Below, one piece after another: positions 798 through 9,463 of a stretch of 10,986 nt of DNA; the first letter of the stretch is position 1; each line of letters starts with the position of its first letter. The notes beneath the pieces are model-generated. The model had not been told where the DNA came from. It made no database searches and worked only from the letters and a program-made list of their open reading frames with translations. Both the position numbers and the translations under genes were made by a program. The DNA is from Promethearchaeota archaeon (GTDB lineage Archaea > Asgardarchaeota > Odinarchaeia > Odinarchaeales > JBHLKK01). The stretch lies in NCBI GenBank assembly GCA_048939465.1, contig JBHLPL010000064.1, positions 1 to 10,986 of the forward strand, read 5' to 3'.

Positions 798-1928
798 ATG
801 GCTCTTCGCCAGGAGACTCATCGAGGGAGAGAATTGGTCTCAAAAAAAGAACATAAGAAATATATGAAAAAAGCATATGGCGCTGAGCAAAAGGCTTTCA
901 AAGCTTGGGATAAATCAAAGTATAAGGAAGCCGCTGATTTCTTTAAGGAAGCCGCTGATCTCTTTGAAAAAGCCATAGACGGGGCTCCTTCCGTCGGAAA
1001 GAAAAAGATGGCTGTTACCAACACGTACGTTGAAAGATGCAATTACTACTGGGTTTACGGGTTGAAGTATTACTTTGAAGATGAGGACCACGAAAAAGCA
1101 GCACAAAACTTCAAGAAGGCCATTCAGGTCAAGCAGAAGATGTTCAGGGTTGAAAAGTACAAGAAAGGACAAGATAAGCCGGATCCTTGGCTGGTTCGCC
1201 AACAAGCTTCGCTTCGTGAACTTTATGCTCTTTTTTATCTATCTTCAGCGATTTTGGCAGAAAAAGGAAAGAAGATTGAGAAAGCAGCCGAGCTTTTTGA
1301 GAACGCTGCCAGGAGTTATTTAAGACAAGCAACCTTGTACGAGCAAATTGGTAAACCACTACACGGTTCCAGAATCCACGCTTATAGCGCGTATCTCCGG
1401 ACCGGTGAGTGCTACAGAAGAATGAAGCAACTGAAAAAGGCTCTGAACTACTATATGATGATAATAGAAGCCTATGAAAATGCCTCTGGTGCGCTTAAGA
1501 AGCGTCTCAAGACGGTTGTAGCATTAACACACGGCGAGCTGGGAGAGTACCATAAAACACAGGGCAATCTTGGAAAGGCCATTGAAGAATATCAGAAATT
1601 CTTCAATTGGGCCAAAAAAATTAAGCTAGACCAAGAGCAAGCCGACGAAGTCACAAGATCTATCTGTATCTTTGCTGCCATACAGGTAAAGCAAGACAGA
1701 CCCAACGAAGCCCAAAAGATTGTCAAGGCTTTTAAGGGACAAGGTGTAGGAAAGGACGTTAAACCTTTCACGGAACATAACTGGTATAAGCTTGCTGTTC
1801 TAATCGCCGAGTTTGGAATGAAAGAAGACGACGAAGTGCTCCGAGAAGCCAAACTGGCTTACAATTCAATGGAGGACAAAAAAAAGGATCCATTTGTTTC
1901 GTCCTTTTTCGAAGAGTTTTCCAAATGA
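798..1928 (+). CDS. TPR/helical-repeat protein, SNAP (Sec17)-like
   Basis: 376 aa, Ala/Lys/Glu/Tyr-rich. TPR-like helix pairs (EAADLFEKA, KAAQNFKKAI, KAAELFENAA, TGECYRRMKQLKKALNYY, LGEYHKTQGNLGKAIEEYQK). The C-terminal ~55 aa resembles the alpha-SNAP C-terminal bundle by eye. TPR call is firm; SNAP relationship is tentative. Confidence 0.75.
   Translation: MALRQETHRGRELVSKKEHKKYMKKAYGAEQKAFKAWDKSKYKEAADFFKEAADLFEKAIDGAPSVGKKKMAVTNTYVERCNYYWVYGLKYYFEDEDHEKAAQNFKKAIQVKQKMFRVEKYKKGQDKPDPWLVRQQASLRELYALFYLSSAILAEKGKKIEKAAELFENAARSYLRQATLYEQIGKPLHGSRIHAYSAYLRTGECYRRMKQLKKALNYYMMIIEAYENASGALKKRLKTVVALTHGELGEYHKTQGNLGKAIEEYQKFFNWAKKIKLDQEQADEVTRSICIFAAIQVKQDRPNEAQKIVKAFKGQGVGKDVKPFTEHNWYKLAVLIAEFGMKEDDEVLREAKLAYNSMEDKKKDPFVSSFFEEFSK
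923..964 (+). repeat. In-frame 21-bp tandem duplication (2 copies, 1 mismatch)
   Basis: TAAGGAAGCCGCTGATTTCTT (923-943) followed directly by TAAGGAAGCCGCTGATCTCTT (944-964), encoding KEAADFF-KEAADLF. Confidence 0.9.
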
Positions 1929-4627: not shown

Positions 4628-4759
4628 TTCACACAGCATCTTCGAAAAACGGATTGCAGAAACGAAAGACTAAATTATATTTATTAAGGAAATAATAAAT
4701 AAAATGAAAGACCATTCTCCAAAAGAGTATGCCGGGCGGGTGGTCTAGGTGGTTATGAC

Positions 4760-4779
4760 ATCCTCAAAAGAGACATAAG
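4760..4779 (+). other. tRNA-Val intron 1, position 25/26 (20 nt)
   Basis: 4-bp central helix TATG (4754-4757)/CATA (4774-4777) with 3-nt bulges AC^A and AG^A; short inner stem. Outer exon helix is weak (relaxed BHB). Boundaries could slide by 1 nt on sequence alone; BHB geometry favours these. Confidence 0.8.
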
Positions 4780-4799
4780 ACCGCGCTTACAACGCGGAG

Positions 4800-4826
4800 A
4801 TTTGACAACAGAATGTCAGACCGGAA
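4800..4826 (+). other. tRNA-Val intron 2, position 45/46 (27 nt)
   Basis: 5' bulge AG^A, 7-bp inner hairpin TTTGACA/TGTCAGA, central helix GCGG/CCGG (3 of 4 pairs), 3' bulge AA^G. Excision restores AGGTC. Confidence 0.75.
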
Positions 4827-4910
4827 GTCCGGAGTTCAAATCTCCGCCCGCCCACCACCTCCTTGAAAAGCAATCGTGTGTTCTATCCTTTATGCTAGGG
4901 GCTGAAGAAG

Positions 4911-6185: not shown

Positions 6186-9161
6186 ATGGTAACCGTAAAG
6201 GAAATATCAAAAGCTGTATCCTTTCCAGATTTAGAAAGTGCAATAATGAAATCTTGGAAAGATAATAAAACCTATGAGAAGGTCAAAGCTTTACGAAAGG
6301 AATCTCCGGAGTACTTGTTCATAGATGGTCCTCCATATACAACAGGACACATTCATGTTGGTACAGGCTGGAACAAGGTATTGAAGGATTTTATTCTGAG
6401 ATATAAGCGCATGAGGGGATACAATGTAAGAGACACGCCGGGTTATGACATGCATGGACTTCCAATCGAAGTGCGCGTCGAACGTGAAATGAAGATTACA
6501 AATAAAAAGCAAATTGAAGAGATTGGAATCGATAAGTTTGTATCCAGTTGCAAAGAATTTGCTTTGAGCTTTCTGGATACCATGACAGATGAATTTAAAC
6601 GCCTGGGTATCTGGATGAACTGGAAGAAGCCATATGTGACCCTCGAAAATGATTATATTGAAGGGGTTTGGTGGGCGATCAAGAAAGCTTTCGAGAATGG
6701 CTATCTGTATAAGGGCTTACGCCCTCTGAACTGCTGCCCCAGATGTGAGACGGCAGTGGCCAAACACGAGTATGAGTATCAATCTGTCGAAGATTACTCT
6801 ATTTTCGTGAAATTCCCAGTTGAAGGAAAAGCTAATGAATACATAGTCATTTGGACTACTACTCCATGGACTCTCCCGGCAAATCTATCAGTCATGGTCC
6901 ATCCTTTCTTTGAGTATGTCAAGGCTGAAGTTGGCGACGAGGTTTGGATAATGGCCAAAGGGATGACTACTTCCTTCATTCAGGGCCTCTTGGGAAGGGA
7001 TTTCAGAATACTGGAAGAATTCGCTGGAGAGAAGCTTTCGGGATTGAAGTATGTCCATCCGCTGAGGGAGGAGGTGCCGAGGCAAGAGGAATTAGAGGGA
7101 GAATTCGAATATGTCCATCGGATAATTCTAACTGATGAATTTGTAACTCTGGAACAAGGAACAGGATGTGTGCATTCTGCGCCGGGACATGGTCCAGAAG
7201 ATTTCGCCGTGGGACAGAAGTATGGTCTGCCTGCTTTTTGTCCTGTGGATGAGTCTGGTCACATGACCGAGGAAGCTGGAAAATACGCTGGGATGACTTT
7301 GGAAAAGACAAGCGAAGCTGTCCTCGAGGATTTGAAACGGAAGGGACTTCTGATTAATGTGGGAAGAGTGAAACATGATTATGCTCATTGCTGGCGGTGT
7401 AAAACCCCCCTGATTTATCGTGCCACTGAACAATGGTTCCTGAAAATGAGCGCACTAAAGGACAAGATGAAAAGCGAGAACAATGGAGTTTATTGGATGC
7501 CTCAATGGGCTGGCAATCCTTGGTTCAATAATTGGATTGAGAACATTCAGGATTGGTGTATATCAAGGCAGAGATACTGGGGCACTCCTATGCCTATTTG
7601 GATGTGCGACAAATGTGGTTATGCTGAAGTCATAGGTTCCGCCAAGGAGCTAAAAGCCAAGAGCAAAATGGAACCTGAAGACCTCCACCGACCTTGGATA
7701 GACAAAGTAACTTGGAAATGCAGCTGTGGGGGGACAATGAAAAGAGTTGAAGACGTTCTGGACGTCTGGGTCGATAGCGGATCATGCGTCTGGTCTTCAA
7801 TTCCTGCAATGTTAGGAAAAAAGGAATTTGAGAATTGGAAGCAAGCGTCATTGATTCTGGAGGGAAAGGATCAGATTCGTGGTTGGTTTAATACACTAAT
7901 GAGTTTGGGTATTGTCACATCGGGAAAGCGTCCATACAATGCAGTCTATATGCATGGAATGACCAATGATGAGAATGGCAAACCAATGAGCAAATCTCTA
8001 GGAAACTTCACTTCACCAGAGGAGGTTACAGAAAAATTCGGTTCGGAGACCTTCAGGTTTTATTCAGTAGGTACAGCAAATCCGGGGGAAGATATGAGAT
8101 TTAGCTGGAGGGCGATAAAGGATACTCATCGAGTCTTGAACATACTCTGGAATACATATGTATTCGCGACTACCTTCATGAGGAGTGCAGATTTCGATCC
8201 AAAGAAACACCCTCTTGAAAAGACCGACCTTCAGCCAGAAGACAGGTGGATTCTGTCGCGGGTAAATACGCTCGTTGAACAAGTGACTGATCGATTTGAA
8301 ATGCTGGATCTGCAAGCAGTACCTAGACTCTTACGTGACTTCATCGTGCTTGATTTGAGTAGGTGGTACATCAAGCTCATAAGAGAAAGAACTTGGGTAA
8401 CCGCAAGAGGACCTGAGAAGATTGCTGGTCTTGCAACCCTTTATTATGTACTGCATAGACTTCTCCGATTACTGGTTCCGTTAACACCCGTACTAGCTGA
8501 AGACTTCTATCGACATCTAGTAAGACCAGTTGATCCTAATGCTCCTGAAAGCGTTCACATGACAGATTGGCCTGAGGCTGAGAATGATCTAATAAACTCT
8601 GAGCTCGAAGATCAAATGAATCTTGTTCAAGATATTGTTGAGGCTTCCCTTGCCATAAGACAAGAGGAGGGAATAAAAAGAAGATGGCCTTGCGGGAGTT
8701 TGTTTGTCAAATTAAAGGCAGGTGTGAGCCTCGGCGAGGAGTTATTAGAAATAGTCGGAAAGATGGCTAATGTGCACGAGATCCAGACAGTTGGAGAGGT
8801 AAAGCCATCTGAAAGCCTTAAAGAGCGGGAGCTTGCTCAATGCTGGGTATATCTTGATACGGAGGTCACAGAGGAGCTGAGGGCTGAGAGATTTGTTAGA
8901 GAGCTGATAAGGAATGTTCAATTCACAAGAAAGAAGAATTCATACCATGTTGGAGAAGAGATTGAGCTTGTGATACTGCTTGAAGACAAGAAACTTCAAG
9001 AATACGTAGAACAGTTTGAAGAGTCAATAAAGAGCAAAGTAACCGCTAAAACTCTCAGTGTATTATTGCGGCCACCCCAAGAACCTGACAAATATGCCAA
9101 GGGAAAAATGAACTACGAAGGTAAAGACATTGTGATTTATTTTAGACGAACGTCTCAGTAA
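6186..9161 (+). CDS. ileS: Isoleucyl-tRNA synthetase (archaeal/eukaryote-like type 2)
   Basis: 991 aa: DGPPYTTGHIHVGT (HIGH variant), GYDMHGLPIE, editing-domain WTTTPWTLPAN and GTGCVHSAPGHGPEDF, DWCISRQRYWGTP, EGKDQIRGWF, GKPMSKSLGN (KMSKS variant), WYIKLIRER. No bacterial type-1 C-terminal Zn finger. Confidence 0.98.
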   Translation: MVTVKEISKAVSFPDLESAIMKSWKDNKTYEKVKALRKESPEYLFIDGPPYTTGHIHVGTGWNKVLKDFILRYKRMRGYNVRDTPGYDMHGLPIEVRVEREMKITNKKQIEEIGIDKFVSSCKEFALSFLDTMTDEFKRLGIWMNWKKPYVTLENDYIEGVWWAIKKAFENGYLYKGLRPLNCCPRCETAVAKHEYEYQSVEDYSIFVKFPVEGKANEYIVIWTTTPWTLPANLSVMVHPFFEYVKAEVGDEVWIMAKGMTTSFIQGLLGRDFRILEEFAGEKLSGLKYVHPLREEVPRQEELEGEFEYVHRIILTDEFVTLEQGTGCVHSAPGHGPEDFAVGQKYGLPAFCPVDESGHMTEEAGKYAGMTLEKTSEAVLEDLKRKGLLINVGRVKHDYAHCWRCKTPLIYRATEQWFLKMSALKDKMKSENNGVYWMPQWAGNPWFNNWIENIQDWCISRQRYWGTPMPIWMCDKCGYAEVIGSAKELKAKSKMEPEDLHRPWIDKVTWKCSCGGTMKRVEDVLDVWVDSGSCVWSSIPAMLGKKEFENWKQASLILEGKDQIRGWFNTLMSLGIVTSGKRPYNAVYMHGMTNDENGKPMSKSLGNFTSPEEVTEKFGSETFRFYSVGTANPGEDMRFSWRAIKDTHRVLNILWNTYVFATTFMRSADFDPKKHPLEKTDLQPEDRWILSRVNTLVEQVTDRFEMLDLQAVPRLLRDFIVLDLSRWYIKLIRERTWVTARGPEKIAGLATLYYVLHRLLRLLVPLTPVLAEDFYRHLVRPVDPNAPESVHMTDWPEAENDLINSELEDQMNLVQDIVEASLAIRQEEGIKRRWPCGSLFVKLKAGVSLGEELLEIVGKMANVHEIQTVGEVKPSESLKERELAQCWVYLDTEVTEELRAERFVRELIRNVQFTRKKNSYHVGEEIELVILLEDKKLQEYVEQFEESIKSKVTAKTLSVLLRPPQEPDKYAKGKMNYEGKDIVIYFRRTSQ

Positions 9162-9255
9162 AATATATGGAAAAGATTTTAAGGAGCCACAGTAAATCTC
9201 AGATACAGTGGGTGTCGGCAATCTTTGACCGGTGGGGCCGTAGCTCAGCCTGGAT

Positions 9256-9273
9256 AGCATAAGAGGCCCGGAT
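9256..9273 (+). other. tRNA-Ile intron 1, D-loop 20a/21 (18 nt)
   Basis: Central helix CTGG (9250-9253)/CCGG (9268-9271), 4 pairs including one G-U; bulges AT^A and AT^G; 2-bp inner stem GC/GC. An 18-nt excision shifted by 1 nt would give A21 instead of G21 but has no BHB. Confidence 0.7.
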
Positions 9274-9290
9274 GGAGCGCCGGCCTTATA

Positions 9291-9327
9291 AGACCACGTT
9301 CCAAACAAGAGTTTCATGCTCTAAGAA
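9291..9327 (+). other. tRNA-Ile intron 2, canonical 37/38 (37 nt)
   Basis: Textbook BHB: central helix CTTA (9285-9288)/TAAG (9322-9325), bulges TA^A and AA^A, outer helix is the anticodon stem. This fixes the anticodon register as UAU. Confidence 0.92.
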
Positions 9328-9335
9328 AGCCGGAG

Positions 9336-9365
9336 ATACCTTGTGAATTCCACAAGGTAATGAAC
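9336..9365 (+). other. tRNA-Ile intron 3, position 45/46 (30 nt)
   Basis: 5' bulge AG^A, perfect 9-bp hairpin TACCTTGTG/CACAAGGTA, then 4+2 nt before exon GTC (exact BHB spacing). Central helix CCGG/ATGA has only 2 of 4 pairs. Confidence 0.65.
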
Positions 9366-9463
9366 GTCGTGGGATCGAAGCCCGCCGGCCCCACCACTCA
9401 TTCTTAGACAATGATGCTTTGAATGAATGACTGAACGCGTATGACTATATCTTACGGTATGAT

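Follow-up and report, generated by a model that had tools for sequence, protein, structure and literature searches.

The stretch of DNA analysed here (the window; 10,986 nt) belongs to the MAG of an Odinarchaeia (Asgard) archaeon (G000, 91% complete). Its plus strand carries the gene of an isoleucyl-tRNA synthetase (ileS) and, 72 nt downstream, a precursor tRNA with three introns (9234–9396). The interval singled out in a preliminary description of this DNA (9285–9328) corresponds to tRNA positions 32 through 38. The features of the locus, with the basis for each assignment, are the following:

6186–9161, plus strand: ileS, isoleucyl-tRNA synthetase (NCBIfam TIGR00392, 936.7 bits)
9234–9255, plus strand: exon 1, with the acceptor 5' strand GGGGCCG, U8, A9, the D-stem 5' strand GCUC and the D-loop AGCCUGGAU (sequence reading)
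9256–9273, plus strand: intron 1, 18 nt, in the D-loop between positions 20b and 21 (BHB scan)
9274–9290, plus strand: exon 2, with G21, the D-stem 3' strand GAGC, G26, the anticodon stem 5' strand CCGGC and loop positions C32–A37 (sequence, BHB scan and spliced fold)
9287–9289, plus strand: anticodon U34-A35-U36 (BHB cleavage geometry; ARAGORN call of tRNA-Ile(tat) on the spliced product)
9291–9327, plus strand: intron 2, a canonical 37/38 BHB intron of 37 nt (top-scoring BHB in the precursor)
9328–9335, plus strand: exon 3, with A38, the anticodon stem 3' strand GCCGG, A44 and G45 (sequence and spliced fold)
9336–9365 (about), plus strand: intron 3, 30 nt, at 45/46, a relaxed BHB with inferred boundaries (hairpin and bulge count)
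9366–9393, plus strand: exon 4, with G46-U47-C48, the T-arm GUGGG-AUCGAAG-CCCGC, the acceptor 3' strand CGGCCCC and A73 (sequence and spliced fold)
9394–9396, plus strand: genomically encoded CCA end (sequence)

The spliced product is 75 nt long, folds into a perfect cloverleaf and is recognized by ARAGORN as tRNA-Ile(tat) with a score of 118.1. Its acceptor strands (9234–9240 and 9386–9392) form 7 of 7 pairs and are followed by A73 and the encoded CCA. When the precursor was scanned systematically for BHB motifs (a 4-bp helix between two 3-nt bulges, with a further helix on either side), the one at 37/38 ranked first. The outer helix of this motif is the 5-bp anticodon stem (CCGGC/GCCGG, 9280–9284 and 9329–9333), the central 4-bp helix (CTTA/TAAG, 9285–9288 and 9322–9325) is entirely Watson-Crick and pairs C32–A35 with intron bases 9322–9325, and the bulges are TAA (9289–9291) and AAA (9326–9328). 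Cleavage past the second bulge nucleotide removes 9291–9327 and leaves the loop C32-U33-U34-A35-U36-A37-A38. Because A's flank both cuts, shifting the splice by one base in either direction does not change the product. The preliminary description had held that a perfect canonical BHB fixes the anticodon as UAU; the geometry and the anticodon stand, but "perfect" is slightly generous for a motif with an inner helix of 2 bp (GA/TC). It had also correctly read A73 (9393), the U12-A23 pair (9245/9276) and the AUA at ileS codon 7 (ATA, 6204–6206).

The two other introns, not listed in the preliminary description, are non-canonical. Intron 1 has a central helix with one G-U pair (CTGG/CCGG), bulges ATA and ATG, an inner helix of 2 bp and an outer helix of 1 bp. 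An interruption at this site also occurs in the Odinarchaeum orthologues (helix CTGG/CCAG) and in a tRNA gene with a CAU anticodon from another Asgard family (G022, described below). Intron 3 has a 9-bp hairpin (9337–9345/9351–9359) as its inner helix and 3-nt bulges AGA and ACG. Since only 2 of the 4 positions of its central helix are paired, the boundaries are inferred; cuts at 9335|9336 and 9365|9366 would give the variable loop AGGUC, as in the tRNA-Ile(GAU) paralog of the same genome.

Enumerated splice boundaries yield products that ARAGORN scores equally as Ile(UAU), Leu(UAA) or Ser(UGA); the anticodon must therefore be settled by the BHB geometry, and a full BHB exists in the canonical register only. 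A BHB as strict as that of the precursor arose somewhere in 6 of 300 shuffled precursors; the motif by itself is therefore modest evidence and it is conservation that carries weight. What decides in favour of the gene is that 25 further genomes have this arm and loop, with the insert at the same site and with compensatory changes in the stems.

The adjacent IleRS probably charges the UAU tRNA with isoleucine, as suggested by A73, by features shared with tRNA-Ile(GAU) and by the proximity of ileS in three lineages. Outside the anticodon stem, the UAU tRNA is about 80% identical to the tRNA-Ile(GAU) encoded on contig C77 of G000. The two tRNAs have the D-arm and G26 in common, as well as an unusual T-loop (AUCGAAG) found in this genome only in this pair. 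Both Ile tRNAs of Ca. Odinarchaeum (G003, a closed sister genome) have a common T-loop as well (UCCRAAU). Furthermore, ileS precedes the tRNA-Ile(UAU) gene in G003 (61-nt gap) and in G043, from family f16, although this synteny is not general and is absent from G013, G016 and G017. The adjacent IleRS is 89% identical to a protein from a 'Promethearchaeota' MAG, 65% to one from an Odinarchaeia MAG and 54% to that of Ca. Odinarchaeum yellowstonii; a related-loci search with this protein retrieved distant relatives only (identity ≤45%). The genome also encodes two EndA-family splicing endonucleases (PF01974, contigs C90 and C139) and the RtcB ligase (C31 and C78), which would cut and rejoin the precursor.

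The way AUA is kept apart from AUG is a textbook difference between the domains: bacteria use lysidine, archaea agmatidine, and eukaryotes IAU or pseudouridine-A-pseudouridine. In these genomes AUA ranks first or second among the Ile codons, with 37% of the Ile codons of G000 (29.7 per 1000 codons) and 49% of those of G003 (45 per 1000), which makes an AUA decoder indispensable. Both TiaS domains (PF08489, TiaS_FLD; PF22641, TiaS_TCKD) scored below cut-off in G000, as judged with two Pfam models that a very divergent or non-homologous C34-modifying enzyme would escape; the same models matched 4 of 4 archaeal control genomes. TiaS was found in 0 of the 7 genomes of the order, closed G003 included. 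We extended the survey to 301 Asgard genomes and found PF22641 in 173 of the 191 genomes (91%) of most families and in none of the 110 genomes of eight families (f1, f2, f9, f12, f13, f16, f23 and f28; G000 included), so that about a third of the sampled Asgard species have no TiaS match. PF08489 was also missing from all 5 closed or near-complete genomes examined from the TiaS-negative families.

The tRNA complement agrees with the loss of the agmatidine route. The closed G003 genome contains 46 tRNA loci by Infernal and by T-arm- and D-arm-anchored finders, and 46 is the canonical archaeal number. Only two carry a CAU anticodon, the initiator and the elongator Met, the latter with its anticodon loop between two non-canonical introns; there is in addition one GAU (900378–900480) and one UAU gene. 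All remaining CAU- or UAU-like heptamers of G003 fall in introns that interrupt the tRNAs for Thr, Leu, Gln/Pro, Lys and Pro. The four orthologous genes (initiator Met, elongator Met, GAU and UAU) are present in G000, and no third CAU gene is among the tRNA loci found in this 91% complete genome, for which the census is not exhaustive. The preliminary description had proposed that the TiaS route was replaced or supplemented, and had named tiaS and a third CAU tRNA of Ile identity as the genes to look for. With no TiaS, no third CAU tRNA in closed G003 or among the G000 loci, and a high use of AUA, replacement is well supported, whereas supplementation is not.

Orthologues of the UAU gene follow the same divide. 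We verified them in 26 genomes from seven TiaS-negative families; no UAU arm was found in the TiaS-positive genomes, where every match proved not to be a tRNA. In all four genomes of the Odinarchaeum family the orthologue has the same stem as here (CCGGC/GCCGG) and the same loop (CUUAUA), with 35 nt inserted at 37/38; a 14-mer search with manual validation identified true UAU tRNAs in f12, f13, f16, f23 and f9. When the f9 gene was in turn used as a probe within its family, 13 additional genomes from six other genera were recovered, and their anticodon stems are compensated (CGGGU/RCCCG, CAGGU/GCCUG and CUGGU/ACCAG). In each of the 13 tabulated orthologues the acceptor stem is paired, and positions 3:70 to 7:66 show two to four kinds of pair; the loop CUUAUA.A, G26 and A73 never vary, and the CCA is encoded in 10. 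Two same-genus genomes (78–82% complete) had no UAU match.

A tRNA with a CAU anticodon appears to occupy the corresponding place in other families. The TiaS-positive genome G022 (f15) matched the window precursor through the anticodon region, and the match, read by eye, is a CAU tRNA with an Ile-type acceptor (GGGCCCG/CGGGCCC-A-CCA), a D-loop intron at the site used by the UAU gene and no 37/38 intron. As a phylum-wide probe, this gene retrieved Ile-type CAU tRNAs from 21 genomes of f5, f6, f15, f17, f20 and f21, a count that leaves out weaker probe matches in f9, f12 and f13. One carrier of the CAU gene (G049) has no TiaS match, and the same is true of some other members of the CAU-carrying families. 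In TiaS-negative f16, the best match of the probe was a tRNA-Thr(CGU). Since the elongator Met of these lineages has the acceptor stem GCCGAGG, unlike GGGCCCG, the most plausible identity for the GGGCCCG-type CAU tRNA is Ile2, an assignment that draws on the likeness of its acceptor stem to that of tRNA-Ile(GAU). The presence of UAU in TiaS-negative families and of Ile-type CAU in generally TiaS-positive ones makes the two versions complementary, tracking TiaS. The reciprocal 14-mer GCGCCGGCCTCATA did not serve as an Ile2 probe: its matches were elongator Met, rRNA or coding sequence, and an exact match in G154 is not a tRNA.

The spread of the UAU gene over seven families suggests that it is old within the Asgard archaea. 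In a one-gene RpoA' tree (29 genomes from 28 of the 30 families), the TiaS-negative label clustered beyond chance (2 of 500 shuffles as low) and 6 of the 9 TiaS-negative rows fell in a single, weakly supported group. Resolution is lacking at the deep branches: four changes are required on the best tree, and the well-supported branches are compatible with one; counting of loss events was dropped as the resolution was too weak. IleRS was abandoned as a phylogenetic marker, since Asgard genomes contain IleRS of two length classes side by side.

Taken together, we estimate a probability of roughly 85% that the window encodes, as a precursor, the sole tRNA with which this archaeon reads AUA, an 'Ile3'-type tRNA-Ile(UAU) used in place of Ile2(CAU) and TiaS. 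The transcript would lose three BHB-type introns, with cutting by the EndA-family enzymes and rejoining by RtcB, to give the canonical 75-nt cloverleaf with its CCA. Once charged with isoleucine by the adjacent IleRS, the mature tRNA would decode AUA by U34-A pairing and stand in for the agmatidine system missing from the lineage. The most economical origin would be a C34-to-U34 switch coupled to the loss of TiaS. Misreading of AUG by U34 might be prevented by pseudouridine, by another modification or by adaptation of the ribosome or the IleRS, as in Mycoplasma mobile. The intron at 37/38, strictly retained and holding U33–A35 within the central BHB helix, may steer or block modification of U34 as in yeast.

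A role of the 37/38 intron in anticodon modification is suggested by its distribution. All 25 parsed Asgard UAU genes (that of G313 was left unparsed) have an insert after position 37, against 1 of the 21 CAU genes, although related genomes are not independent samples and the association is circumstantial. The exception is the CAU gene of G032, with about 15 nt. In the UAU orthologues the insert measures 29–57 nt (77 nt in G293, by an uncertain parse), and the 37/38 motifs of f9 are out of the canonical register, a point against a special role. The genome encodes an Elp3-type U34 modifier on contig C84 (33861–35414), so U34 is potentially exposed to xm5U-type modification. We found no box C motif (RUGAUGA) in the intron, and that of the window has no box D motif (CUGA) either, which rules out a box C/D guide like the one formed by the tRNA-Trp intron of Haloferax.

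The intron could instead be neutral, one more BHB intron in intron-riddled lineages that the UAU genes keep by common descent, an explanation to which we give somewhat less than an even chance. Intron-sized tRNA loci are indeed very common (36 of 46 loci in G003, and about 10 of 35 Infernal matches in G164 and about half in G293), and a preprint describes heavily interrupted tRNA genes in Asgard archaea (10.64898/2026.10.13.758758). Common descent also accommodates the retention of the insert among non-independent relatives, and no extra Pus1/TruA paralog was found in the TiaS-less lineages, each genome having one gene of this family in TiaS-negative and TiaS-positive lineages alike. Against neutrality, the other introns of the UAU gene come and go among families (G164 has only that at 37/38, the window has three), whereas the 37/38 insert persists in every parsed UAU gene despite strong divergence in length and sequence. 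It is also nearly confined to them, even where the D-loop intron is common to the UAU and CAU versions. Furthermore, the published UAU genes of Korarchaeum and ARMAN-2 have an intron (PMC6000648; PMC3239211).

The comparison with eukaryotes bears on the same question. In eukaryotic tRNA-Ile(UAU), a 37/38 intron is obligatory and the pseudouridines at 34 and 36 depend on Pus1 (PMC6582322); in yeast, the intron and Pus1 prevent xm5U-type modification of U34 (PMC6582322). The archaeal gene is alike in using UAU for AUA, in placing the intron one base 3' of the anticodon, with which it pairs in the precursor, and in sharing the cell with an Elp3-type modifier from which U34 would need protection. 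It differs in that splicing follows the archaeal BHB rule, that the partner isoacceptor is an archaeal GAU tRNA (on C77 in G000 and the single GAU gene in G003) rather than AAU converted to IAU, and that, in a comparison made at the level of genes, only one archaeal TruA-family gene is present (C88:8845–9150 in G000). It is conceivable, if rather unlikely, that UAU and its obligatory anticodon-adjacent intron were already set in TiaS-less Asgard archaea, including a family labelled Hodarchaeota, that the eukaryotic system descended from them and that the intron acts as in yeast. The intron duplex would then let U34 (and U36) gain a restrictive modification, or escape the Elp3-type one, before splicing, and misreading of AUG would be avoided. 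The family in question is f12, whose IleRS is 100% identical to a protein labelled 'Candidatus Hodarchaeota'.

That the UAU tRNA merely supplements a CAU route, with a divergent TiaS or unrelated enzyme and an Ile2(CAU) overlooked, appears very improbable. G000 is incomplete, the TiaS search used two Pfam models only, and multi-intron tRNAs are easily overlooked, Infernal and ARAGORN missing the UAU gene itself. Nevertheless, both CAU genes among the exactly 46 loci of closed G003 are assignable to Met, the same model that detects TiaS in 91% of the other genomes finds 0 of 110 in the eight families, and the CAU probe readily retrieves Ile-type genes in TiaS-positive families and just a tRNA-Thr in f16. 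Least probable of all, and largely refuted, is that the gene is a pseudogene (decaying or without expression) or in fact another isoacceptor, Leu-UAA or Ser-UGA, read with a shifted splice. In favour of this, shifted products score equally in ARAGORN, the inner BHB helix at 37/38 has 2 bp and the central helix of intron 3 is poor. Against it, only the canonical register gives a full BHB, and across 26 genomes every stem is maintained, with compensatory changes, and A73 and the loop CUUAUA.A are retained. In its body the tRNA is like tRNA-Ile(GAU) and unlike the class II tRNA-Leu and tRNA-Ser, and the genome requires an AUA decoder.

Ikeuchi 2010 and Mandal 2010 are reportedly the original sources for the UAU tRNAs of Nanoarchaeum equitans and Candidatus Korarchaeum cryptofilum. 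In both organisms, a tRNA-Ile(UAU), named 'Ile3' in tRNAscan-SE 2.0, replaces Ile2 and TiaS (PMC6000648; 10.1101/614032). The preliminary description named these two exceptions correctly and omitted the ARMAN/DPANN lineages (PMC3239211). ARMAN-2, -4 and -5 (Micrarchaeota/Parvarchaeota) have a pre-tRNA-Ile(UAU), no TiaS and no tRNA-Ile(CAU), and the 25-nt 37/38 intron of ARMAN-2 forms a strict hBHBh' motif that its own endonuclease cleaves in vitro (Fujishima et al., 2011; PMC3239211). As UAU decoding without TiaS is thus published for Nanoarchaeum, Korarchaeum and ARMAN, the window gene is in this respect an ordinary example of a known archaeal exception. It shares with Nanoarchaeum and Korarchaeum the genomic UAU anticodon in a genome without TiaS and tRNA-Ile2(CAU), and with the Korarchaeum gene an intron and a close relationship to the tRNA-Ile(GAU) paralog. 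Unlike these genes, it is from an Asgard archaeon of the Odinarchaeia, has three introns and is linked to ileS, and its type recurs in at least seven Asgard families instead of being a single-species oddity. The ARMAN genes are alike in anticodon, in the lack of TiaS and tRNA-Ile(CAU) and, in ARMAN-2, in the 37/38 BHB intron; the window gene differs in its two extra non-canonical introns and weaker inner helix, and two separate EndA-family genes take the place of the three-unit epsilon-2 endonuclease of ARMAN. The tRNA-Ile(UAU) of the bacterium Mycoplasma mobile, which lacks tilS, is presented as a different system of AUA decoding (Taniguchi et al., 2013; PMC3575796). There, loss of the C34-modifying enzyme (TilS) is similarly offset by a UAU anticodon, in a tRNA gene that has no intron.

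Our literature search found no paper linking the loss of TiaS or agmatidine, or a UAU tRNA, to Asgard archaea, nor do Ile, UAU or TiaS come up in the 2026 preprint that deals with tRNA introns of this group (10.64898/2026.10.13.758758). Neither the Asgard-wide complementary pattern nor the association of the intron with U34 appeared in the papers searched. All seven TiaS-negative families in which the gene was found have the UAU tRNA and, among parsed genes, always keep the anticodon-adjacent intron, while the remaining families generally have TiaS and almost always a CAU version without a 37/38 intron. Eukaryotes have no closer known relatives than the Asgard archaea, and their tRNA-Ile(UAU) needs just such an intron for its anticodon pseudouridines; the system could offer a concrete archaeal model in which to test how eukaryotic AUA decoding arose and, an old question, what purpose tRNA introns serve.

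The locus also illustrates how standard tools handle heavily interrupted tRNA genes. ARAGORN (default settings) and Rfam (gathering threshold) both missed the tRNA of the window because three introns interrupt the gene. With the -i option, ARAGORN reported just 25 tRNAs in G000 and 34 in G003, several with the wrong anticodon; an "Ile tat" call (G003:634681), for example, is actually Thr-GGU, and the initiator was labelled Gly. Automatic BHB removal followed by ARAGORN scoring was dropped for anticodon assignment as too noisy, and genome-wide regular-expression scans for CAU arms returned mostly coding-sequence false positives. Multi-intron genes are thus missed or mis-called by standard tRNA finders, and automated annotation would consequently report such genomes as having no AUA decoder. 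Finders anchored on the T-arm or the D-arm outperformed the CAU-arm regular expressions.

Both isoleucine isoacceptors within each genome, that of the window and the closed sister genome (Ca. Odinarchaeum), have an unusual T-loop in common that is absent from other tRNAs:

Window genome, contig C77, 4032-4128, minus strand, and window 9369-9385: Ile pair with T-loop AUCGAAG (A54, G60)
Sister genome, 900378-900480 and 153891-154034: Ile pair with T-loop UCCRAAU

This departure from other T-loops may serve as an Ile-specific identity or modification signal. In the tRNA-Ile(UAU) precursor, a segment in the 5′ portion of intron 2 (CCACGTTC, window 9294-9301) matches by complementarity window 9362-9372 (GAAC-GTC-GTGG), a stretch that takes in the 3′ splice region of intron 3 and the first bases of the T-stem. 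A bulge-helix-bulge (BHB) scan of the precursor gave this pairing, an alternative BHB-like fold, a score of 9. The sequence that opens intron 2, N-G-R-Y-C, is kept across families.

Multiple inserts interrupt other tRNA genes of the window and the two genomes:

Window 4734-4857, plus strand: second multi-intron tRNA gene, acceptor GGGCGGG...CCCGCCC-A-CCA
Window genome, contig C63, reverse-complement coordinates about 1180-1445, minus strand: initiator tRNA-Met, AGCGGGG...CCCCGCU-A-CCA
Sister genome, near 701,600-701,760: initiator tRNA-Met orthologue
Window genome, contig C88, 5638-5824, plus strand: elongator tRNA-Met
Sister genome, 581302-581477, minus strand: elongator tRNA-Met

The window gene, interrupted by inserts in both its D-arm and variable regions, scored only 18 bits with Infernal. 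ARAGORN made no call at default settings and, with -i, assigned it to Leu(CAA), whereas its anticodon arm (CCGCG-CUUACAA-CGCGG) reads as Val(UAC). The initiator tRNA-Met of the window genome has at least four inserts, some of them in the T-arm and the 3′ strand of the acceptor, and its orthologue in the sister genome was wrongly called Gly by ARAGORN. Elongator tRNA-Met, which every standard tool left undetected in both genomes, has non-canonical introns on both sides of the anticodon loop (after 30 and after 38/39) and a further intron in the T-loop.

Protein-coding genes are, or may be, interrupted as well:

L223/L229 (G043), L225/L230 (G017) and L224 (G239), all in other Asgard genomes: interrupted RNA polymerase A′ loci
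Window genome, contig C31, 2961-5708, minus strand: one of two RNA ligase (RtcB) loci, family match in two pieces

In three families that lack TiaS hits (f16, f13 and f28), the gene for RNA polymerase A′ has a long in-frame insert at the same residue (about 451), which looks like an intein, in open frames of 1389-2317 aa. Similarly, about 1.4 kb separates the two RtcB pieces within a single 973-aa open frame, suggesting an intein or other in-frame insert.

Asgard matches to the window isoleucyl-tRNA synthetase (IleRS) fell into two classes, one of about 985-996 aa (50-57% identity to the query) and another of about 1045 aa (45-46%). Because some labels (Thor, Hod) occur in both, their distribution suggests paralogy or gene transfer. 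The IleRS of one Asgard genome (G164, family f23; C22:190018-193050) matched in two blocks within a single open frame; the approximately 170 nt between them could represent either a short insertion or an mRNA intron of the BHB type.
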